IMG/VR virus record: IMGVR_UViG_3300045988_110019
Span: 1 to 39,268 of that record
DNA length: 39,268 bases
Reading direction: 5' to 3' (one strand)
From: a virus
The notes beneath the pieces were generated by a model, which had not been told where the DNA came from, searched no databases, and saw only the letters and a list, made by a program, of their open reading frames with translations. The first letter of the stretch is position 1; every line of letters begins with the position of its first letter. Shown here in pieces: positions 2,603-38,895 of this stretch. The translations under genes were made by a program, and so were the position numbers.

Positions 2603-4443
2603 TGAATGAATGGGATGAGAAAAAAGCACTGAAAAAAGGATATACGGATAGGCTGACATCTGTTGATTTGGATAGGTATAATCTAAGGAAAATAGACGGT
2701 CGGCTATTTTCTTATATATATGGCGTGCAGTCCTGCCCGGAGGGGCATAACCTGTACGAGGTCCTTTCTGTGCTGAAATTCCTCCGTCTGATGGACACTT
2801 ACACGTTTCAGAAAAAAAGAGTGAAAGTGTTTGTAGCCTTATATGAGAGCCTTAAATTTTCGGGAATAAACGGACGCCGCAGTTATAAGCTAACCCCCGT
2901 GCAGTATTTCCAGTTTGCCTCTATACTGGGGTTTTACAGATGGGAAGATATAGGCAGCGTGGAAGATATGACGGAAAGAAAGAAGGGAACAAAGGTCGTC
3001 AACGGGCGTGTGATGGAGTTGAGGCGGCTGGTAAGGGAGGCTATTCTGTTCGTTCCGAGAAAGTTTTCAAAGACCACCTCTACGGCTTCTCTTGCTGTTA
3101 ATGACCTGCTTTTTGGGGATGCGAACGCGCAGGCATACACGGGCGCGAATTCAGGGCGGCAGGCTAAGATATGTTTTAATGAGATAAAGGGTATTATTAA
3201 TCAATTGGATCCGGATAGACGCAGTTTTAAGACAAATCGTGAATGGCTGGGATGGAGGCCTACCAACACATACGGGAAAGAATCCTTTGTGGAATGTCTG
3301 TCGGGGGGCGGTGATGCAAAGGACGGTCTTAACGCATCTCTTTTTATCTTTGACGAATATGCGCAGGCGAGATATGTGAAGGATCACTCGGAGGGTGCGG
3401 AACTTATGCAAGTTATGGTGTCTTCTATGGGTATGAGAAGGGAGCCTCTGACAGTGATTATAACTACTGCAAGCCGCGTACCTGACGGACCTTTCGCTAT
3501 AGAGCTGGAAAATGCGAAGAAAGTCCTTTTAGGAGAATATGACGATGATACGCAATTCGCGTCATTGTTTATGCCGGATGAATGGGAGCTTGACGATGAG
3601 CACATGAGTACTCCGGAGCTGTGGAAGAAATGTAATCCGCATATTGGCATAACGGTACAGGAGGGTTATTACCGCCAGATGTGGAACAAGGCGATACGCA
3701 ACGTTGAGGCTATGATAGAATTTAAAACCAAGTTACTTAATGTCTTTGTTGCAGGCTCCGTAAAACCGTGGATAACACAGAATTTCGCCCATTCCTTGTC
3801 CATGAACATCAATTTGGAACAGGTGAAGGGAAGACCGTCTGCTATGGTGGCTTTTGACTTGTCTGTTTCTGATGACCTTTCCGCCGTGGTTTACAATATT
3901 TATAATAAGGAAGATAAAAAATTCTATCTGTTTATGGATAGCTATATACCGGAAGAAACAATAGAAACCCACCCGAACCGTGAGCTTTATAGGATGTGGG
4001 TAGATGGCGGCTGGTTGAAAGTATGCCCCGGTGCTGTCATAGATATGGACATGATTATAAACGACATATTAAGGCGTGACCGTAATTTGTTTATATGCCG
4101 GATAGGCTATGATGCTTACAAGGCAAGCGAGATACGCAACGCGCTTGCAGCGGGACTTTTGGGACACGGGAAGAACCCGGACAAGATACTGCGTGCTGTT
4201 CCCCAGACCTACGGGGCGTTTACATCACCGGTAGAATCGCTGGAGCTGGCGGCAAAGAGCCGTCCGGCTCATCTTGTTATTGCTTATAATCCTATCCTAT
4301 TCTGGAACTTTGGAAACTGCTATATAGATGAAGATAAGATGTGTAATAAGAAACCGTTGAAAAGGAAGGAAAATCTTAAGATTGACGGTGCGATAGCCTC
4401 CTTGATGACATTTTGGCTTTACAGTAATACGGAACAGAGGTAA
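2599..4443 (+). CDS. terL: Terminase large subunit (Terminase_1-like)
   Basis: 614 aa. Walker-A-like PRKFSKTT, Walker-B-like LFIFDEYA, C-terminal nuclease-like region. Positioned before the portal. Confidence 0.9.
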   Translation: MMNEWDEKKALKKGYTDRLTSVDLDRYNLRKIDGRLFSYIYGVQSCPEGHNLYEVLSVLKFLRLMDTYTFQKKRVKVFVALYESLKFSGINGRRSYKLTPVQYFQFASILGFYRWEDIGSVEDMTERKKGTKVVNGRVMELRRLVREAILFVPRKFSKTTSTASLAVNDLLFGDANAQAYTGANSGRQAKICFNEIKGIINQLDPDRRSFKTNREWLGWRPTNTYGKESFVECLSGGGDAKDGLNASLFIFDEYAQARYVKDHSEGAELMQVMVSSMGMRREPLTVIITTASRVPDGPFAIELENAKKVLLGEYDDDTQFASLFMPDEWELDDEHMSTPELWKKCNPHIGITVQEGYYRQMWNKAIRNVEAMIEFKTKLLNVFVAGSVKPWITQNFAHSLSMNINLEQVKGRPSAMVAFDLSVSDDLSAVVYNIYNKEDKKFYLFMDSYIPEETIETHPNRELYRMWVDGGWLKVCPGAVIDMDMIINDILRRDRNLFICRIGYDAYKASEIRNALAAGLLGHGKNPDKILRAVPQTYGAFTSPVESLELAAKSRPAHLVIAYNPILFWNFGNCYIDEDKMCNKKPLKRKENLKIDGAIASLMTFWLYSNTEQR

Positions 4444-11406: not shown

Positions 11407-13618
11407 TGCGATTGTAAGATTGTTGTTTAACACCGCTGATTTTGATAAGAACATCAGAAGGGCGAAAGGTGAGATAGGGAATTTTGAAAAAAGCATAACA
11501 AGTATGGCCGGCAAGATAGGACCTGCTCTAAGTGGTTTTGCTGCTTTCGCTGGTATATCGGTAGCCATTGGGGATGTGGTAAGGACTTCTATGGAGTTTG
11601 AAAAGTCGTTATCTTCTTTGAAATCCTTAACAGGTGTGACAACGCAGGAGCTTTCGTTTTTTAAAGATGAGGCTATCCGTTTGGGTAGTACCACCACGCA
11701 GACTGCATCTCAGGTGGTAGATGCCTTTAAGCTGATAGGATCTCAAATGCCAGAGTTGTTAAAAAATAAAGAGGCTTTATCTTCTGTAACGGAAAGCGCT
11801 ATTATATTAGCAGAAGCCGCAGAAATAGATGTTCCTGAGGCCGCTAAAGCGTTAACAGGAGCTCTAAATCAGATGGGCGCTTCTTCTAGCCAAGCTGCTG
11901 AATATATCAATATTTTAGCGGCAGCCTCTCAACAAGGCTCTGCTGATATCCCATATCTGAACAAGGCTATAGAGAATGCCGGTGGTGCTGCATCTTCTGT
12001 AGGTGTACAATTCAATGAATTGGTAGCCGCGATAGAGGCTATTGCTCCTAAAATAACGGATGCCGGCAGTGCGGGAACTAATCTGCGTAATATATTTCTC
12101 ACTTTGGAAAGTAGTGCGGACAAGAACTTACGTCCTTCCGTGGTCGGGTTGTCACAAGCTGTGGAAAACCTTGCAGCAAAGCACATGAACGCTACAGAAA
12201 TGACGAAAATGTTTGGTAAAGAGAGCGTAACGGCTGCTTTGGCACTCGTTTCTGAAAAAGATAAATTTATAGAGTTAACCGATGGAATAACAGGAACAAA
12301 TACTGCATTAGAACAACAAAAAATCAATAATGACAACTTAGCAGGATCTATAGCGGCATTGCAATCTGCTTGGGAAGGTTTCATATTAACGCTAAACAAT
12401 TCTTCGGGTATGTTACAAAGCGTAGTTGGTTTTTTAGCTGATATTGTAGATGGAGCACGAACGGCATTTTCTTCATTACAAGCTTTGGACGAGTCTAGTT
12501 ATAAGAGCGAAGGTCAGAAATCGTTTAGATCAGAAAAAGTTCAAAACGCTATAAATGATATAAACGAACTGGTAAAAGGAGGAATGAGCCGGGAAGATGC
12601 CTTGAACTGGGAAGAGAATTTAACAAGAGATCTGTATAAGAGAGCTGATTCGTTAGAAGAAAAAAAAGAAGCCTATGAAGAGGCTATGGCAATATACAAT
12701 GAGAGAGGTGGACAGTGGGACAAACGGGCTTACGAGCAATCAAAGGAAGTGTATATGTTAGCTCGGAACGAAAAGCAAATACGTGATGAAATATTAGATT
12801 ATATTGAAAAAGAACGACAGAAATTAAAAGGCGTTGGTGATATCCAGAAGGAATTAAACAAGGGGGCTACTGTGGGTACTGGGGGAAAGAAAGGACCTAC
12901 GGATTTGCAATTAGCTGCATTTAATGCCGAAGGATGGGCTAATGAAGAGGTAAAAGGGCTTCATAACAAGCTAAGACAGGCTATTGAGAGTGGAGATAAA
13001 ATAAAGATAAAAAATATAGAGATTGATTTGGATGAAGCTATAGATGAAGCTAAATTACCTGATTTGTCCAAAAAAATTAAAGAAAACGAAGATTTCGCAA
13101 ATTCGTTAAGTGCCATAGGTAACGCTTTTGGTAGCATGTCTTCAATGGCTGATGGTGCCGCCGGTTCTATCCTGTCTTATTTCGGGAACTTAATGAACTC
13201 TGTGGCTGCCGCGATTCCGGCTATTGATGCTCTTAATGCAAAGAAAAAGGAAGAATCTGTGGCTAATACGGAAGCAGCCGTAACCGGAGCCGCTTCGTCT
13301 GTGGCTTCCATTCCGTTTGTTGGTGCGGCTTTGGCTGTAGCCGCCATAGCTTCAGTTTTGGCTGCTTTAGCCAATATTCCCAAATATGCAACAGGTGGTA
13401 TAGTGGGAGGATCATCATTTTTCGGTGATCACATGATAGCACGGGTTAACAGTGGCGAGATGATATTGAACCAGTCCCAGCAAGGTAAGCTGTTCAATAT
13501 GATTAATAATGGTGGTGGATCCAATCACATAACGGTAGACGGTGAGGCACGGGTAAGCGGTAAGGCTATGTATATAACAATAAGGAATTACATGAAGGCT
13601 AACAATATAAAGTGGTGA
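11396..13618 (+). CDS. Tail tape measure protein
   Basis: 740 aa, Ala/Ser-rich helical N-terminal core (LGSTTTQTASQVVDAFKLIGSQ), coiled-coil middle, hydrophobic Gly/Ala-rich C-terminal part. Confidence 0.9.
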   Translation: MASNAIVRLLFNTADFDKNIRRAKGEIGNFEKSITSMAGKIGPALSGFAAFAGISVAIGDVVRTSMEFEKSLSSLKSLTGVTTQELSFFKDEAIRLGSTTTQTASQVVDAFKLIGSQMPELLKNKEALSSVTESAIILAEAAEIDVPEAAKALTGALNQMGASSSQAAEYINILAAASQQGSADIPYLNKAIENAGGAASSVGVQFNELVAAIEAIAPKITDAGSAGTNLRNIFLTLESSADKNLRPSVVGLSQAVENLAAKHMNATEMTKMFGKESVTAALALVSEKDKFIELTDGITGTNTALEQQKINNDNLAGSIAALQSAWEGFILTLNNSSGMLQSVVGFLADIVDGARTAFSSLQALDESSYKSEGQKSFRSEKVQNAINDINELVKGGMSREDALNWEENLTRDLYKRADSLEEKKEAYEEAMAIYNERGGQWDKRAYEQSKEVYMLARNEKQIRDEILDYIEKERQKLKGVGDIQKELNKGATVGTGGKKGPTDLQLAAFNAEGWANEEVKGLHNKLRQAIESGDKIKIKNIEIDLDEAIDEAKLPDLSKKIKENEDFANSLSAIGNAFGSMSSMADGAAGSILSYFGNLMNSVAAAIPAIDALNAKKKEESVANTEAAVTGAASSVASIPFVGAALAVAAIASVLAALANIPKYATGGIVGGSSFFGDHMIARVNSGEMILNQSQQGKLFNMINNGGGSNHITVDGEARVSGKAMYITIRNYMKANNIKW

Positions 13619-24255: not shown

Positions 24256-24552
24256 ATGAAATTAGAGGAACTGTATAAGGATATAATAGGTGTTGTGTGT
24301 GATGTTACCGGTCTTGTTGAGGCTGACATATTAGCCAGCAATCGCGAGGAATGCGCCGATGCAAGGTATCTACTGGTCATGGCGTTGTCCAAAATGCTGA
24401 CTGATCATGAAATTGGCAGATTTATCAACCGTACCCGACAAGGTGTATCGTTTATTCGCTCGAATCGGCAAAAATTAAGGAAATGGACAGTTGCAAGCAA
24501 TTGGAAAGTAATTAGCAAGTATATAGCAAGTAATTACTTTATCTGCAAGTGA
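24256..24552 (+). CDS. Small DnaA-C-terminal-like HTH protein
   Basis: EADILASNREECADARYLLVMALSKMLTDHEIGRFINRTRQGV resembles the DnaA domain IV pattern (S.R....ARq.amYL...T..s...IG..f.r.h.tV). Confidence 0.5.
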   Translation: MKLEELYKDIIGVVCDVTGLVEADILASNREECADARYLLVMALSKMLTDHEIGRFINRTRQGVSFIRSNRQKLRKWTVASNWKVISKYIASNYFICK

Positions 24553-24611
24553 CTTGTACGGACATTTGTGAGCGGTCAATATTGACCGTAATTCCAAAAA
24601 GTTATAAGTTT

Positions 24612-25376
24612 ATGGAAGCAGAAGTAAAGCAAGTGATTAAAGAAAAGGAGTATGTCCATGACAACGACAGGAAGGAATATGCTTCAAAAGGTCTAGCCGG
24701 AACCGCTCTCGGTATCGCTATCGGTGCGGGAGTATTATCATTGTGGGGGCGTGGTCGTGGTGTAGGTATCGGCGGTGGTATGCCTGAAAACGTGAATATC
24801 AACACAGTCAGTGATGCTATTTCCGGTCGTACCGGTGTTGCTCCTACCGCTTTCCAGGCATGGGAGAAAGGTTGTGATGAGGCTTTGGCGTTAACAAACA
24901 CCATTTGGGGGATTAAAGTCAACACTCAGGAGCAGATGTATAATCATCGTGAGATTGATATCAACGAGAAATGGCAGCTTTACAAGTCACAGGTAGAGGG
25001 TGATTTCGGTAACTATAAGGTTTCCCGTGATCTCTACGACAACATGAACGACAAGCTGAATACAGCCGCATTCGGCTTGTACAAAGGACAGCGTGACCTG
25101 TACGACACACTGAACGAACGTTACTCCGCCAAGTTCTGTGAGCTTGACAAGAAAGTCTACGGAATGGAAGTGGCTAACCTGTATCAGAACAAGATCATAC
25201 AGATGGGTATGGAAAGTGTCCTGAAGGATAGTATGTGCTATACGGACCGCAAGACCTGTCGTGCAATCTATGGTGTAGTGGGTTTACCGTCAACCCCGAC
25301 AGTGAACGTGCTGGAGGGGGCGAACCCTTACGGATGCAACTGCCGTCCACAGGCAGGAACAGCTCCAAGCGCATAA
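24612..25376 (+). CDS. Hypothetical membrane protein with a Gly-rich segment
   Basis: ATG start within the 24549 ORF. LAGTALGIAIGAGVLSLWGRGRGVGIGGG hydrophobic/Gly-rich region. Internal repeat SRDLYDNMNDKLN / QRDLYDTLNERYS. Confidence 0.55.
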   Translation: MEAEVKQVIKEKEYVHDNDRKEYASKGLAGTALGIAIGAGVLSLWGRGRGVGIGGGMPENVNINTVSDAISGRTGVAPTAFQAWEKGCDEALALTNTIWGIKVNTQEQMYNHREIDINEKWQLYKSQVEGDFGNYKVSRDLYDNMNDKLNTAAFGLYKGQRDLYDTLNERYSAKFCELDKKVYGMEVANLYQNKIIQMGMESVLKDSMCYTDRKTCRAIYGVVGLPSTPTVNVLEGANPYGCNCRPQAGTAPSA

Positions 25377-34200: not shown

Positions 34201-35139
34201 ATGAACTACGGATTACCATATATGGGGAGTAAGTCCAAGATAGCGGAATGGGTTGTTTCAAATCTTCCTTCAGCTGATATCTGGATAGAGCCTTTTGCCG
34301 GAGGATGTGCCGTCACTCATGCCGCCATTTTATCCGGTAAGTATAAACATTTTATTATTAATGACATAACGGATAGTACTAAAACATTCATTTATGCAAT
34401 TAAAGGAGGATTTAAGAACGAAAACCGCTGGATAAGCCGAGAAGACTTTTTCCGGTTGAAGGATACGGATCCCTATGTACGTATATGTTTTTCCTTCGGA
34501 AACGATCAGAGGACTTACTGTTATGGTGATATAGAGCCTTATAAGCGTGCGTTTCATTATGCCGTGTTTAATGATTTTAAGCCATTTGCAGAGCTTAGAA
34601 TACTTATTCCAGATTGCGTCTTAAATGGGTGTAAAAACACATATGAAAAGCGTTTAAGGATAAAAAAATTTTTAATCCAGATTAGAAAAGATAAACATGC
34701 AGGCGATTTGCAAAGTTTGGAAAGTTTGGAAAGTTTGGAAAGGTTGCAAAGTTTGGAAAGGTTGGAAAGGTTGCAAAGTTTGGAAAGGTTGCAAAGTTTG
34801 GGAAATTTGCAAAGTTTGCAGGGAGATTATAAGACTATATCCATTCCGACTGATAAGAGCTATGTAATATATTGTGACCCACCATATAAAAACACATCCT
34901 CATACCTTGATGATTTCAATCACGAAGACTTTTATAAATGGGCTTTAAAGCAAGATAATTGCTATATATCGGAATATAATATGCCTGATTCTTTTGTTAG
35001 GATAGCTTTAAAGAGCAAGCTGTCGCTGAAAGCAGCGACAGGGAATAGAAAGATTAAGGAAGAAGGTATATGGGTTTCAAAAGAGAATGTAAATAGGATG
35101 AGTAATGTATATATGCCATTGTTTAAAAACTTTATTTAA
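34201..35139 (+). CDS. dam: DNA adenine methyltransferase (Dam / D12 class) with an internal repeat insertion
   Basis: LPYMGSKSKIAEWV, EPFAGGCAV (motif I) and IYCDPPY (motif IV). Confidence 0.85.
   Translation: MNYGLPYMGSKSKIAEWVVSNLPSADIWIEPFAGGCAVTHAAILSGKYKHFIINDITDSTKTFIYAIKGGFKNENRWISREDFFRLKDTDPYVRICFSFGNDQRTYCYGDIEPYKRAFHYAVFNDFKPFAELRILIPDCVLNGCKNTYEKRLRIKKFLIQIRKDKHAGDLQSLESLESLERLQSLERLERLQSLERLQSLGNLQSLQGDYKTISIPTDKSYVIYCDPPYKNTSSYLDDFNHEDFYKWALKQDNCYISEYNMPDSFVRIALKSKLSLKAATGNRKIKEEGIWVSKENVNRMSNVYMPLFKNFI
34708..34821 (+). repeat. About 12.5 copies of the 9-nt unit TTGSAAAGK, encoding (L-Q/E-S/R)n inside the Dam gene
   Basis: ttgcaaagt ttggaaagt ttggaaagt ttggaaagg ... read directly. 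Translates as LQSLESLESLERLQSLERLERLQSLERLQSLGNLQSLQ. Confidence 0.9.
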
Positions 35140-37049: not shown

Positions 37050-37340
37050 ATGAATTGCGAGATAAAGGGAAGAATAACGGTTGACCTTGGTGTTACAAGA
37101 AGGGGAGTGACAAGTAAGGGCTTGGATTACGAGATAAGGGAATATGTGATAACCGAGCAGACCCAATTTGGGAAGTCCATGCAGTTTTCGGTGTACAGTG
37201 GTGATGGGCCCGTGAAAGATCCTCTGAAGGTTGGTGATGATGTGATAGTGAATTTCAATGTGTCCGCCAAAGAATACACGGATAAGGACGGAAAGAAAAA
37301 ATGGTTTAACAGTGTACAGGCATGGAAGATACAAAAGTAG
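37050..37340 (+). CDS. DUF3127-like OB-fold protein (putative ssDNA-binding)
   Basis: IKGRITVDLGVT...REYVITEQTQFGKSMQFSVYSG...LKVGDDVIVNFNVSAKEY...KWFNSVQAWKI matches the DUF3127 pattern. Confidence 0.65.
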   Translation: MNCEIKGRITVDLGVTRRGVTSKGLDYEIREYVITEQTQFGKSMQFSVYSGDGPVKDPLKVGDDVIVNFNVSAKEYTDKDGKKKWFNSVQAWKIQK

Positions 37341-37516
37341 CTGTGGTGATCAGATGGAATACATGGAATCGTACCACAATAGAGAAGATGGCTAAGAGAT
37401 TTGGGTTTGAGCCTTATGTGAGCGTGAATCGTAAGACAGGTGCTCTTATAAAAAAGGAGGATATGGATTTACTCGAAGAATGCGCGAGGCGTGGAATTAT
37501 CGAAATATCAAAATAA
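37322..37516 (+). CDS. Hypothetical protein (64 aa)
   Basis: ORF in the early operon. Confidence 0.45.
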   Translation: MEDTKVAVVIRWNTWNRTTIEKMAKRFGFEPYVSVNRKTGALIKKEDMDLLEECARRGIIEISK

Positions 37517-37534
37517 CGAAAAATAAACAATATC

Positions 37535-38320
37535 ATGGAACAGAAAACATTTGAAAAAATAAAGGAAGAACTATTACTGCGCGCCAAGAAAGCAGGAGCC
37601 TGTCAAATAGGTTATGCAATGGGATTAAGGAGTCAAAGCAAAGCTGATATACTTAAGGCTATTACTGATAACTGGTTTTGGGTGTTACGAACAGCAAGAA
37701 TAGTAGATGCAGAATATTTAGAAGACAATTTTACTGAAGAAGAGCTTACGGAAGCTGGTATCTATACACAAAAATACCATGAGGTAACAACGACATCTTT
37801 TGCCTGCGGCAGCGCAACAGTGGAAGCCTGCGGCAGCGCAACAGTGGAAGCCTACGACAGCGCAACAGTGGAAGCCTACGACAGCGCAACAGTGGAAGCC
37901 TGCGACAGCGCAACAGTGAAAGCCTACGGCAGCGCAACAGTGAAAGCCTACGACAGCGCAACAGTGGAAGCCTACGGCAGCGCAACAGTGAAAGCCTACG
38001 ACAGCGCAACAGTGAAAGCCTACGACAGCGCAACAGTGGAAGCCTACGACAGCGCAACAGTGGAAGCCTACGACAGCGCAACAGTGGAAGCCTGCGACAG
38101 CGCAACAGTGAAAGCCTACGGCAGCGCAACAGTGAAAGCCTACGACAGCGCAACAGTGAAAGCCTACGACAGCGCAACAGTGGAAGCCTACGAAAATTCT
38201 TATGTTGAGGATTTAACAGGTAATATTAGGCCCCAGTCTGGATATGCAGTAATCAAGGATTATTACAACCATAAGATTTACATCAAAAAAGGGAGATATC
38301 AGATTGTAGAGGTTGATTAA
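37535..38320 (+). CDS. Repeat protein: globular N-terminal domain plus 16 octapeptide repeats A-[CY]-[GD]-SATV-[EK]
   Basis: 261-aa ORF. The repeat region translates in frame with no stops. Confidence 0.7.
   Translation: MEQKTFEKIKEELLLRAKKAGACQIGYAMGLRSQSKADILKAITDNWFWVLRTARIVDAEYLEDNFTEEELTEAGIYTQKYHEVTTTSFACGSATVEACGSATVEAYDSATVEAYDSATVEACDSATVKAYGSATVKAYDSATVEAYGSATVKAYDSATVKAYDSATVEAYDSATVEAYDSATVEACDSATVKAYGSATVKAYDSATVKAYDSATVEAYENSYVEDLTGNIRPQSGYAVIKDYYNHKIYIKKGRYQIVEVD
37802..38193 (+). repeat. 16.3 copies of a 24-nt tandem repeat (gcctRcgRcagcgcaacagtgRaa)
   Basis: Counted directly. Units start at 37802 with a period of 24. A partial 17th unit follows at 38186-38193. Confidence 0.95.
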
Positions 38321-38385: not shown

Positions 38386-38895
38386 ATGGCTCAAAACGGA
38401 ATAGAAATGAGTGAAACAAAAATAATATTAGATGCCTGTTGTGGCAGTAGGATGTTTTGGTTTGATAAGAAGAATCCAAACGTTCTTTTCCAAGATATTC
38501 GTGATGTCGAATATGTTTTATGCGATGGTCGTAAGCTGGAAGTCCATCCTGATGTGGTTGCCGACTTTACAGCAATGCCGTATTCGGACAGTTCTTTTAA
38601 ACTTGTAGTCTTTGATCCTCCACACCTTGATAATGCGAACGAGGGTGCATATATGGCTCAAAAGTATGGAACGCTTCGACGGTTTAAGTGGCAGGAAGAT
38701 ATAAAGAAAGGATTCAGCGAATGTATGCGAGTGCTTGAACCGAACGGAGTGCTGATTTTCAAATGGAACGAAACTCGTATTCCTGTAAGACGAATATTGG
38801 AGATAATCAATGAGCGGCCGCTATTCGGGCATAAGTCCGGAAAAGCATCTAAAACTCATTGGATGTGCTTTATGAAATTGCCAATTAATTCTTAA
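38386..38895 (+). CDS. Small SAM-dependent methyltransferase, probable DNA N6A/N4C methylase
   Basis: Motif I-like ILDACCGSRMFWF followed by motif IV-like VVFDPPHL, then LEPNGVLIFKW. Confidence 0.6.
   Translation: MAQNGIEMSETKIILDACCGSRMFWFDKKNPNVLFQDIRDVEYVLCDGRKLEVHPDVVADFTAMPYSDSSFKLVVFDPPHLDNANEGAYMAQKYGTLRRFKWQEDIKKGFSECMRVLEPNGVLIFKWNETRIPVRRILEIINERPLFGHKSGKASKTHWMCFMKLPINS

Follow-up and report, generated by a model that had tools for sequence, protein, structure and literature searches.

The tandem array close to the end of the window, by which we mean the whole 39,268-nt stretch of viral DNA analyzed (IMG/VR record IMGVR_UViG_3300045988_110019), probably encodes a rod-like β-solenoid within a non-structural early accessory protein and evolves as an in-frame minisatellite under selection. 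The units of such arrays are homogenized at the DNA level, while three codons per unit stay mixed, and very many array alleles are found on otherwise identical phage backbones.

An in-frame octapeptide array in an early gene

TRF identified a tandem repeat at positions 37802-38193, with a period of 24 nt, 16.3 copies, 95% matches and a score of 672. Unit parsing placed 16 units in exact register, each reading A-[C/Y]-[G/D]-S-A-T-V-[E/K], in frame with the ORF that contains them (Table 1). A search with the degenerate unit pattern returned 16 matches in the window, all inside the array, where shuffled sequences are expected to give 0, and no further copy was detected elsewhere in the window even when 3 mismatches were allowed. 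The three approaches thus bear out the 16 in-frame 24-nt units described in an earlier note on this DNA, and the partial 17th unit proposed there is present in degenerate form as AYENSYVE. Across the 16 units, 21 of the 24 positions are invariant, and variation is confined to position 5 (4 G, 12 A), position 8 (5 G, 11 A) and position 22 (9 G, 7 A).

The recurrence of the unit triplet YDE-CDK-YGK, from which a recent duplication of about 8 units had been suggested, is real and larger than stated, extending over 133 nt at a lag of 192 nt. Runs of at least four repeated units, however, arose in approximately 21% of shuffles of the window's own units, so that the repeat at the 8-unit lag is suggestive but alone not significant, and we rejected the duplication as a significant event. 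In a close relative (P0014), a 4-unit block identical to one in the window is duplicated at a lag of 4.

Table 1 Features of the array gene and its surroundings in the window.
Feature	Positions	Strand	Remarks
DUF3127 / SSB-like gene	37050..37340	+	early replication-recombination module
64-aa gene (phrog_19578)	37322..37516	+	upstream; marks the slot for this cassette or the DUF7666 repeat cassette
261-aa ORF (stop included)	37535..38320	+	putative early-region accessory protein: N-domain, octapeptide array, C-terminal cap
N-terminal helical domain, residues 1-73	37535..37753	+	AlphaFold2: five helices, pLDDT about 74-93
Degenerate lead-in strands, residues 81-89, HEVTTTSF...	37775..37801	+	predicted to open the solenoid; AlphaFold2 strands 81-84, 87-90
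Octapeptide array	37802..38185	+	16 x 24-nt GCC-T[G/A]C-G[G/A]C-AGC-GCA-ACA-GTG-[G/A]AA; TRF, unit parsing, pattern search, AlphaFold2 periodicity
Internal exact repeat, copy 1	37834..37966	+	133 nt; unit 2 position 9 to unit 7 position 21
Internal exact repeat, copy 2	38026..38158	+	133 nt; 192 nt (8 units) downstream of copy 1
Degenerate 17th unit AYENSYVE	38186..38209	+	homologues keep Y[ED]NSYVE
C-terminal cap domain (...KIYIKKGRYQIVEVD)	38210..38317	+	conserved even in distant members; AlphaFold2 confidence low, pLDDT about 45-54
DNA methyltransferase gene	38386..38895	+	directly downstream; not a conserved partner

The 261-aa protein has a pI of 4.6, and the array alone one of 4.05. DNA mimicry was considered as a family-wide role and rejected: the array is acidic, yet Lys is present in it at about one per two units, and the relatives from mycobacteriophages are rich in Arg and His. 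The homologue alignment shows invariant residues in the N-domain (A22, C23, G26 and W49) and in the C-cap (K241, D242, Y243, K247-I250, K252, I257 and E259), and distant family members retain the C-cap motif KIYVKKGxFEIIEV. The N-domain was found in only 94 clusters (50% identity), in an N-terminal position every time. Pfam searches with the N-domain and the C-cap, each alone, matched no family, and PADLOC and NCBIfam searches with the 261-aa protein gave only weak matches, under curated cut-offs or with E > 0.001, and nothing usable.

The host replicon is a temperate Bacteroidales-type phage. Its array gene lies in the early region among SSB-like, NinG (NinG/Rap) and methyltransferase genes, with the structural genes at 2.6-21 kb. 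Neighboring genes differ between lineages and the neighborhood is mosaic; no gene was constantly adjacent, the link to a methyltransferase in the window and in a Porphyromonas relative being absent elsewhere. In sister phages (loci L101-L118), the same slot is occupied by a cassette of DUF7666 and ATAG[D/N/Y][S/R/Y/C/G]GA repeats (PHROG 4433). This cassette resembles that of the window in its start (MEQK), its end (..VEVD) and its perfect 24-nt array, here of 2-15 copies with variation limited to two adjacent codons; it differs in the unit itself and in variation that includes transversions. Homology between the two cassette families was rejected (hhalign probability 1%). Judged by its genomic context, the array gene appears to be an accessory, swappable cassette.

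A widespread family with variable copy number

The architecture of N-domain, octapeptide array and C-cap is common to more than 3,700 homologues (>3,711), with arrays of 2 to 34 copies and protein lengths that change in steps of 8 aa. A scan of species-representative genomes returned only 4 matches, all metagenome-assembled. The earlier note had named a common, invariant structural repeat family as an outcome that would speak against its reading; the family is indeed common, but it is not invariant, since three residues vary.

The mycobacteriophage proteins Squirty gp51 and Che8 gp59 (PHROG 15773; ALTTAQ_rpt PF20080 and DUF7666 PF24703) share the octapeptide A-x-[G/D]-S-A-x-V-x, variable copy number and an early-region location in temperate siphophages, and they too are without a described role. 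The window protein differs from them in lacking the C-terminal DUF7666 domain (no Pfam match), in having its own helical N-domain and C-cap, and in units that are far more uniform. PHROG 15773 matched the window protein with E = 7e-34 over profile positions 34-136 of 288, the repeat part only, and Squirty gp51 over positions 35-288. Against the ALTTAQ_rpt cut-off of 26.4 bits, relative P0042 (36.0), the Porphyromonas relative (32.4) and Squirty gp51 (34.9) pass, whereas the window protein gave no match at E <= 0.1; it is thus related to members of that family without itself passing. Literature searches on DUF7666, ALTTAQ and the repeat peptides returned nothing relevant, with no described role for any family member, and Girr and NormanBulbieJr, for which mycobacteriophage overexpression-screen data were considered, had no homologue among the tblastn matches.

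Concerted evolution with escape at three codons

We partitioned the variation at each unit position into within- and between-array components (an Fst-like value) across 75 arrays. Synonymous positions 3, 10-12, 15, 18, 21 and 24 gave values of 0.93-1.00 and were each polymorphic in 0-7 of the 75 arrays, whereas positions 5, 8 and 22 gave 0.13-0.21 and were polymorphic in 72-74 of them; position 24 is homogenized within arrays, and position 22, two bases away, is not. The arrays therefore undergo concerted evolution, with escape at three sites. Their copy number changes by whole units, and the units of one array are alike, whereas those of different lineages have diverged, as expected of an in-frame minisatellite (VNTR).

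Three synonymous backbones distinguish lineages (AGC..ACA..GTG.GAA; AGT..ACG; GCT..TCT GCC ACG GTC.AG), across all of which the peptide A-x-x-S-A-T-V-x is unchanged, with Ser encoded by AGC, AGT or TCT. Extra alleles (F, H, N, R, T, I and E) occur in codons 2, 3 and 8 via other nucleotides. Corresponding residues vary as W/C (TGG/TGT), G/D and R/E in the Porphyromonas relative and as W/L, G/D and E/K in other relatives. Because the extra alleles strike the same three codons at other nucleotides, selection would act on residues, and the dimorphism, as read from these alignments, is residue-targeted rather than nucleotide-targeted. The proposed combinatorial variation of residues was corroborated, as variation falls on the same three residues throughout the homologues. 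The observation that variation is limited to G/A at three positions holds for the window but not for relatives, which also vary by F, H, N, R, T and I and by transversions; the G/A restriction thus looks like a local trait of the window's lineage, the rule concerning residues and not transitions. For positions 5, 8 and 22, we rejected a hot spot of methyltransferase sites or deamination, as the sequence contexts differ between backbones.

Among 23 proteins with identical N- and C-flanks we found 23 different arrays of 8-16 units, and phages that share identical flanks over 8.4 kb have arrays of 16, 15 and 12 units, in agreement with the suggested hot spot of length variation. Over 8.4 kb, the flanks of the window and of locus L088 differ by 0 substitutions and one 1-nt gap, and each array has 40-44 private 31-mers, which alternative paths through one de Bruijn graph cannot explain. 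Arrays of equal length on identical flanks lie 1-3 single toggles apart. Conversely, one 13-unit allele (P0075) is DNA-identical at 8 loci in separate assembly records, apparently from different cohorts and with different assemblers, and is more stable than its own mosaic upstream flank; the locus is therefore hyper-allelic and not uniformly fast-changing.

Counts of E and D per array were near-binomial around 0.5 (dispersion index 1.2-1.6), and the D and E fractions showed no compensation (r = +0.09). Simple charge-balance selection would predict under-dispersion, and the observed pattern would also fit independent randomization at each site. Linkage between sites 3 nt apart was approximately zero, which means that very many events would be needed if recombination alone were responsible.

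A predicted two-sheet rod

AlphaFold2 modeled the 261-aa protein with a mean pLDDT of 84 and a pTM of 0.79, placing one 4-residue strand in every 8 residues from 81 to 226 (pLDDT 91-98 for residues 81-200, and 75-81 in the last units). This regular periodicity upholds the β-solenoid reading offered in the earlier note, and the array most likely folds as a rod-like β-solenoid. Covariation between units provided a second view of the fold. At lag 2, identity at E/K was depleted in a set of 116 arrays (z = -6.05) and again in another 62 (z = -2.97), and identity at Y/C was enriched (z = 3.85 and 1.75, respectively). At lag 1, E/K identity showed a slight enrichment (z = 2.84 and 0.49), and lag 3 was non-significant; the lag 1 and lag 3 signals are weak, and none lies in the direction expected for stacking. 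The anticorrelation of E/K between units i and i+2 fits a two-sheet β-solenoid with 16 residues per turn, so that, from covariation and strand periodicity, we infer a coil of two units.

Foldseek against the PDB yielded no match with E < 0.6, and a profile search of PDB sequences returned only matches with E >= 0.05; the best matches in a library of predicted viral structures were uncharacterized phage proteins, a DUF7666 protein among them. The non-significant Foldseek matches included RTX lipases and an RTX block. The RTX β-roll is built from a 9-residue repeat, with 18 residues per turn, and the repeats of ice-nucleation proteins have a periodicity of 8, 16 and 48 residues. The predicted rod would resemble these two-sheet β-solenoids in its short repeats, two per coil, its small Ala/Val core and its ladders of Thr/Ser and charged residues on flat faces; it differs in showing no sequence or significant structural match, in lacking the GGxGxD calcium motif and in being a putatively cytoplasmic phage protein.

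Alternative explanations

The reliability of the assembly has to be weighed first, and the caution voiced in the earlier note proved well founded. The 55-nt terminal overlap of the window, which we confirmed, points to assembly at k=55, and the array holds 107 repeated 55-mers in addition to the 133-nt exact repeat, so that it is unambiguous only at k of about 151 or more and the window's exact copy number is insecure. An N run lies exactly over the array in phage005a, a Porphyromonas relative. Records L119 and L120, both of 6,708 nt, show one differing base over the 6,296 nt compared, at a D/G site, and single-site differences in databases may therefore be consensus ambiguity or within-sample polymorphism; locus L038 has 29 identical units consecutively. 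Most of the arrays analyzed come from short-read metagenome assemblies, for which the general problem with repeats is documented (PMC6868369). All this would suit a reading in which short-k-mer assembly produced the array, with its copy number and order of units, from a simpler repeat, a reading that we regard as possible but doubtful. Against it stand the shared architecture in thousands of proteins from many assemblers, the P. gingivalis phage005b array of 16.5 units read through in a hybrid Nanopore and Illumina assembly, the recurrence of one exact allele in 8 independent assemblies, 31-mer content that path choice cannot create, and a 9-nt tandem repeat in the flank that does not differ among the three phages sharing the 8.4-kb flanks. 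Artefact could thus touch the copy number and order in the window, not the phenomenon.

A purely mutational origin, in which the three dimorphisms are tolerated leftovers in a neutral minisatellite, would accommodate the near-binomial composition without D/E compensation, the very high diversity among identical backbones and the fact that G, D and N are generally interchangeable at β-arc turn positions. We consider it unlikely, because synonymous variants are homogenized on three backbones where the three sites are not, the same residues are dimorphic in independently homogenized arrays (Porphyromonas and other lineages), and the lag-2 depletion of E/K identity is a protein-level signal. Targeted hypermutation, in which a process resembling a diversity-generating retroelement (DGR) or a deaminase toggles G/A at three nucleotides, has in its favor the transitions-only pattern of the window, linkage equilibrium even at 3 nt, allele frequencies near 0.5 with near-binomial dispersion and the single toggles between equal-length arrays. 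Even so, it is improbable: no reverse transcriptase was found in the 27 window ORFs scanned (Pfam and/or PHROGs; all those of at least 250 aa included), the window holds no template copy of the unit elsewhere, and the other six unit adenines never vary, although a DGR would mutate all template adenines. Moreover, the context of the three sites is not the same on different backbones, in relatives, transversions and two-base changes underlie the variation at the same residues, and conversion between units accounts for the toggles without new mutation. The array shares with DGR targets a phage-encoded protein and a focus on few residues, but its variety would come from unit shuffling, as no reverse transcriptase, template repeat or adenine-wide mutagenesis was found.

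A structural needle, that is, a tail or baseplate part with a trimeric, triple-stranded β-helix like that of T4 gp5, is slightly less probable still. Gp5_trimer_C scores 32.9 bits on the window protein (gathering cut-off 30.9), PHROG 9992 ('baseplate assembly protein') matches with E = 6e-8, and the VxGxxxxx repeat of gp5 has the same 8-residue period. Nevertheless, family members score only 12.8-19.3 bits on Gp5_trimer_C, under the cut-off; the gene is an early-region one outside the structural module; V7 and G/D3 are four residues apart (V-x-A-x-G), not two, with G alternating with D; and Foldseek gave no match to gp5 or VgrG structures. In an intertwined homotrimer of the gp5 type, neighboring strands would come from units i and i+1, as reasoned from the gp5 structure, whereas coupling is found at lag 2 and not at lag 1, which is an indirect test. 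The C-terminal β-helix of gp5 thus shares the period, but the window protein departs from it in motif spacing, genomic place and stacking register. Least probable of all is a role at the DNA level, with the 24-nt units serving as iterons or other protein-binding sites for the adjoining replication genes. Direct repeats near replication-recombination genes (NinG/Rap, SSB-like and methyltransferases) suggest it, and the lambda origin does lie inside gene O. Yet the DNA differs between lineages at 8 synonymous positions, with AGC to TCT among the changes, and the peptide is kept, which leaves the iteron-like role raised in the earlier note unsupported. In addition, every variable site is non-synonymous, thousands of homologues preserve both the reading frame and the flanking domains, and the same unit occurs in lineages with quite different neighboring genes. 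The array strand folds worse than shuffled sequences (z = +5.4), indicating no single-strand structure, and an Rfam search gave no match.

A probable in-frame minisatellite under selection

The preferred reading, a selected minisatellite encoding a solenoid rod, would work as follows. One 8-residue unit would supply a short strand (T-V-x-A) and a turn (x-[G/D]-S-A), and two units would most likely make one 16-residue coil, the stacking partner of unit i being unit i+2. Gains and losses of whole units may arise through slippage, unequal crossing-over and short-tract conversion among identical copies, and the same processes would homogenize the unit sequence, giving rise to concerted evolution. 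Since all other positions are identical, recombination could only reshuffle the three existing dimorphic sites. These would encode an aromatic/Cys ladder, a G/D turn residue and an E/K surface ladder, where variety is either tolerated or needed. We infer that selection at the protein level, rather than hypermutation, keeps the three sites mixed in every lineage, with E-K pairing between stacked coils as one likely component. The expected outcome is a very large number of array alleles, varying in both rod length and surface pattern and carried by phages whose backbones are otherwise the same.

Repeat proteins shaped by the gain and loss of units, β-solenoids and retroelement-made hypervariable proteins of phages are already familiar. 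What is unusual here is the combination of a very common early gene of gut phages with an array that is uniform at synonymous sites and mixed at exactly three residues per unit in every lineage, and the replacement of the array gene, at the same slot, by a non-homologous cassette of the same design. For database entries of this family, over whose arrays short-read assemblies fail or stay ambiguous, care is advisable.

TAL effectors (TALEs) also consist of near-identical tandem repeats that are homogenized at the DNA level, vary at a few fixed residues, differ between strains in number and order and are hard to assemble. The likeness, in homogenized repeats with few variable residues each, is an analogy only: TALE repeats have 33-35 residues, are helical and follow a known DNA code, whereas the units described here have 8 residues, are predicted to be β-structured and have no known ligand. 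Given the early accessory location and the cassette replacement at the same slot, the patterned rod might offer a surface to which a partner of host or phage origin binds, for instance in defense or counter-defense, which is speculative and rather doubtful. More tentative still, and in our estimate unlikely, is the broader idea that both slot cassettes are recombination-driven diversity generators, with the repeat-variable residues of the solenoid forming a recognition surface that tracks or evades a polymorphic host partner, such as a defense sensor or another periodic target. If true, this would represent a TALE-like design in β-structure and a hypervariation of phage proteins without reverse transcriptase. 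The family offers a natural system for asking how selection opposes concerted evolution at single codons, how the order of repeats encodes the contacts of a solenoid, for which the lag-2 E/K coupling is a structure-from-population-data result, and whether the shuffling of units is a second, retroelement-free route to surface diversification in phages.

A uniform array with three variable residues

We found that 37802-38193 is the sole strong tandem array in the window (TRF: period 24, 16.3 copies, score 672). An in-register parse yielded 16 units (37802-38185), directly followed by the degenerate unit AYENSYVE, and variation was confined to unit positions 5 (G4/A12), 8 (G5/A11) and 22 (G9/A7). 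The degenerate unit pattern matched 16 times, always within the array, with no match elsewhere in the window even at 3 mismatches and 0 in shuffled sequence. These analyses confirmed the earlier note's description of 16 near-perfect in-frame units with G/A variation at three positions; the frame is that of the ORF at 37535-38320 (261 aa), and the peptide unit is A[C/Y][G/D]SATV[E/K]. The higher-order repeat that the note described also exists, since 37834-37966 equals 38026-38158 exactly (133 nt, lag 8 units), but repeated runs of at least 4 units arise in ~21% of unit shuffles, and this repeat taken alone is therefore only suggestive. The same four-unit block is duplicated in the close relative P0014. 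Opposite the array, the minus strand carries a 143-aa ORF of RCRRL[S/P]LL repeats (37746-38177), a by-product of repeat periodicity that we do not regard as a gene.

The window closes on itself through a 55-nt overlap, encodes an integrase and a repressor, and has Bacteroides and Porphyromonas phages as its closest database relatives. TerL, portal, capsid and tape-measure proteins lie at 2.6-21 kb; the repeat gene lies outside this structural module, in an early block with DNA methyltransferases, NinG/Rap and a DUF3127 SSB-like gene.

Positions of further features in the window and in related loci
Feature	Position	Context
DNA methyltransferase genes	291-1046, 34201-35139, 38386-38895	Three separate genes in one 39-kb temperate phage, all in the early block
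11-nt tandem repeat, 4 copies, GCAAGTAATTA	24493-24536	End of ORF 24256-24552, overlapping start of ORF 24549-25376; could be an operator or other binding-site cluster (candidate)
9-nt tandem repeat, 12.4 copies, TTTGGAAAG	34707-34818	Inside Dam-like methyltransferase ORF 34201-35139; codes for consecutive LQS/LES/LER triplets
Imperfect 39-nt direct repeat, 92% identity	39139-39177 and 59-96	On either side of the circular join, copies ~130 nt apart, downstream of a methyltransferase gene
DUF7666 cassette	about 2714-3622, locus coordinates	L101-L118 (IMG/VR loci)
N stretch in the deposited prophage, coinciding exactly with the array	12087-12896 in record	phage005a (L082, BK068088.1), P. gingivalis ATCC 49417

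The array protein belongs to a very common but uncharacterised group of phage repeat proteins, with more than 3,711 proteins sharing its architecture and lengths stepping by 8 aa. Its N-domain forms only 94 clusters at 50% identity, is always N-terminal, and precedes either a Fib_succ_major-like domain or a solenoid, the latter anywhere from degenerate to perfect. The protein matches only the repeat part of PHROG 15773, essentially the mycobacteriophage Squirty gp51/Che8 gp59 family (ALTTAQ repeats plus DUF7666), whose members are all annotated as hypothetical and differ in length by repeats. In the searchable literature we found no mention of the window protein's family or of its evolutionary behaviour.

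That behaviour is striking. Across 120 homologues, the identical three residue positions vary in a pattern unique to nearly each protein, and unit 1 is almost always C-G. Lineages differ in three synonymous backbones (AGC/ACA/GTG/GAA; AGT/ACG; GCT/TCT/GCC/ACG/GTC/GAG), with a single backbone per array in most arrays. We partitioned diversity within and between 75 arrays, calculating an Fst-like value per unit position. Synonymous sites (positions 3, 10-12, 15, 18, 21, 24) gave 0.93-1.00 and were polymorphic in 0-7 of the 75 arrays per site, versus 0.13-0.21 and 72-74 of the 75 for the dimorphic non-synonymous sites (5, 8, 22). Homogenisation is thus efficient, yet it leaves the three non-synonymous sites mixed in every lineage.

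The rule concerns residues rather than G/A transitions. Additional alleles (F, H, N, R, T, I, E) use the same three codons with other nucleotides. In arrays independently homogenised in other lineages, homologous residues vary by other change types: a Porphyromonas array varies W/C via TGG/TGT and R/E via two bases, and more distant members show W/L, G/D and E/K variation or 9- and 10-residue units. These observations favour selection at the protein level and speak against a mutator specific to certain nucleotides.

A predicted two-sheet solenoid

AlphaFold2, run on the window protein with 55 homologues (pLDDT 84, pTM 0.79), predicted five helices in residues 1-73 and, between residues 81 and 226, one 4-residue strand (T-V-x-A) per 8 residues. 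The strand region had pLDDT of 91-98 at residues 81-200, dropping to 75-81 for the final units, and confidence in the C-terminal sheet was low. Solved structures gave no significant match, and the best matches in a predicted viral library were uncharacterised phage proteins and a DUF7666 protein.

Register was assessed by scoring residue matches between units i and i+lag against within-array shuffles. A two-sheet solenoid with two units per coil would place unit i beside i+2, so that lag 2 is expected; a three-sided monomer predicts lag 3, and, reasoning from the published gp5 geometry, an intertwined trimer of that type should give lag 1. At lag 2, matching E/K was depleted and matching Y/C enriched. 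Lags 1 and 3 gave weak signals only, none in the stacking direction: E/K was mildly enriched at lag 1 in the 116-array set, and lag 3 was not significant. The lag-2 signals therefore favour a putative 16-residue coil and, together with the predicted strand per unit, uphold the beta-solenoid proposed earlier.

Residue matching between units, z against within-array shuffles
Residue pair and lag	116 arrays	62 further arrays
E/K, lag 1	+2.84	+0.49
E/K, lag 2	-6.05	-2.97
E/K, lag 3	+1.50	+0.51
Y/C, lag 1	+0.36	-0.82
Y/C, lag 2	+3.85	+1.75
Y/C, lag 3	+1.67	+0.25

Alternative origins of the pattern

DGR-like or deaminase hypermutation at the three sites is unlikely, given that no reverse transcriptase was found among the window ORFs scanned, that the window holds neither a template repeat nor adenine-wide variation, and that site contexts differ between backbones while relatives use transversions. 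A neutral minisatellite conflicts with the data, both with the partition of synonymous and dimorphic sites in the 75 arrays and with the lag-2 coupling. A structural needle, a tail part of the gp5 type, is likewise unlikely: the window protein scores marginally for Gp5_trimer_C (Pfam; 32.9 versus a cut-off of 30.9 bits), its relatives fail that cut-off, and the early-block location, the motif spacing and the lag-2 register all speak against it. The suggestion of iteron-like sites or another DNA-level role was not borne out, as the units are synonymously rewritten between lineages without any DNA-level signal.

Array diversity and the reality of the arrays

Twenty-three proteins whose 89-aa and 44-aa flanks are identical each have a different array (8-16 units), and 13 same-length pairs among such identical-flank proteins are only 1-3 single-residue switches apart. 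Over 8.4 kb of flanks, the window and the phage locus L088 differ by 0 substitutions and one 1-nt gap, yet their arrays comprise 16 and 15 units, each with 40-44 private 31-mers; that of L089 has 12. The 9-nt repeat is identical in these three near-identical phages, whose 24-nt arrays differ. Loci with identical 2.4-kb flanks share array prefixes and differ in unit number. The anticipated hotspot of length variation thus holds. In addition, the allele of the homologous protein P0075 is constant on backbones differing by up to 8% in the upstream 3 kb. Together with the identical-flank diversity, this indicates that the locus is hyper-allelic and assorts as a module, with certain alleles both stable and widely distributed.

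Units would be gained and lost through slippage, unequal exchange and short conversions among identical units; these processes would only reshuffle pre-existing dimorphisms, and selection would block loss of either allele at the dimorphic sites. The three sites are in linkage equilibrium (phi ~0), and per-array counts are near-binomial (~0.5 for E/K and D/G, ~0.8 for Y). This composition, and the fact that D and E do not compensate each other within arrays, depart from what simple charge balancing would predict and remain the main loose end.

A pure assembly artefact is rejected for the phenomenon but may affect the copy number and order of the window's units. The window array contains 107 repeated 55-mers and becomes unambiguous only at k ~151, which bears out the earlier caution on both. 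Furthermore, L119 and L120 (ENA records, both 6,708 nt) differ over 6,296 nt by one base, a D/G site of the array (locus position 3467), and represent either duplicate assembly of one sample that was itself polymorphic or one switch separating two samples. Against an artefact, the architecture and its 8-aa length steps recur in the more than 3,711 proteins noted above, and the array of phage005b (P. gingivalis ATCC 49417), part of a Nanopore and Illumina assembly (PMC10367356), is read through as 16.5 units of SATV[R/E]A[W/C][G/D]; its record is 36 nt shorter overall than that of phage005a, with otherwise identical flanks. The exact 13-unit P0075 allele recurs with identical DNA at 8 loci; these come from separate assembly records that apparently represent different cohorts and were built by different assemblers. 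The private 31-mers of the window and L088 occur on matching flanks. Such arrays are real; the window's own version is not secure, and its exact protein had no match in a 15-billion-protein collection. Separately, the gene at 2345-3277 of L038 (IMGVR_UViG_2868548784_000001) comprises 34 units, including an unbroken run of 29 identical YDE units, reflecting either very recent expansion or assembly inflation.

An alternative cassette for this slot

A search with the upstream 64-aa gene (phrog_19578) recovered 28 loci, 17 with a window-type cassette. In ~9 of the 28, another protein occupies the slot from the same start offset (MEQK...) and ends in ...ELVEVD. It combines a DUF7666 domain with 2-15 perfect 24-nt units, GCCACGGCTGGT-[G/A/T]AT-[A/T][G/A][A/T]-GGTGCT, encoding ATAG[D/N/Y][S/R/Y/C/G]GA, which vary only in two adjacent codons. 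A longer, related form occurs at two further loci, L112 and L113; in the scanned locus, L112 (2714-4111), an N-terminal PHROG 2072 domain (motif FVFGSNxxGxHxGGAA) precedes DUF7666 and an array of GAASATG[D/N/Y][N/C/R] that Pfam mis-scored as collagen.

Homology between the DUF7666 cassette and the window protein was not detectable, so the design of uniform units with few variable residues arose, or was kept, in two unrelated and mutually replacing proteins. It is the best clue that what matters is the patterned rod itself. The element is most probably a patterned, variable-length beta-solenoid rod and, with low confidence as to function, a putative accessory binding surface.
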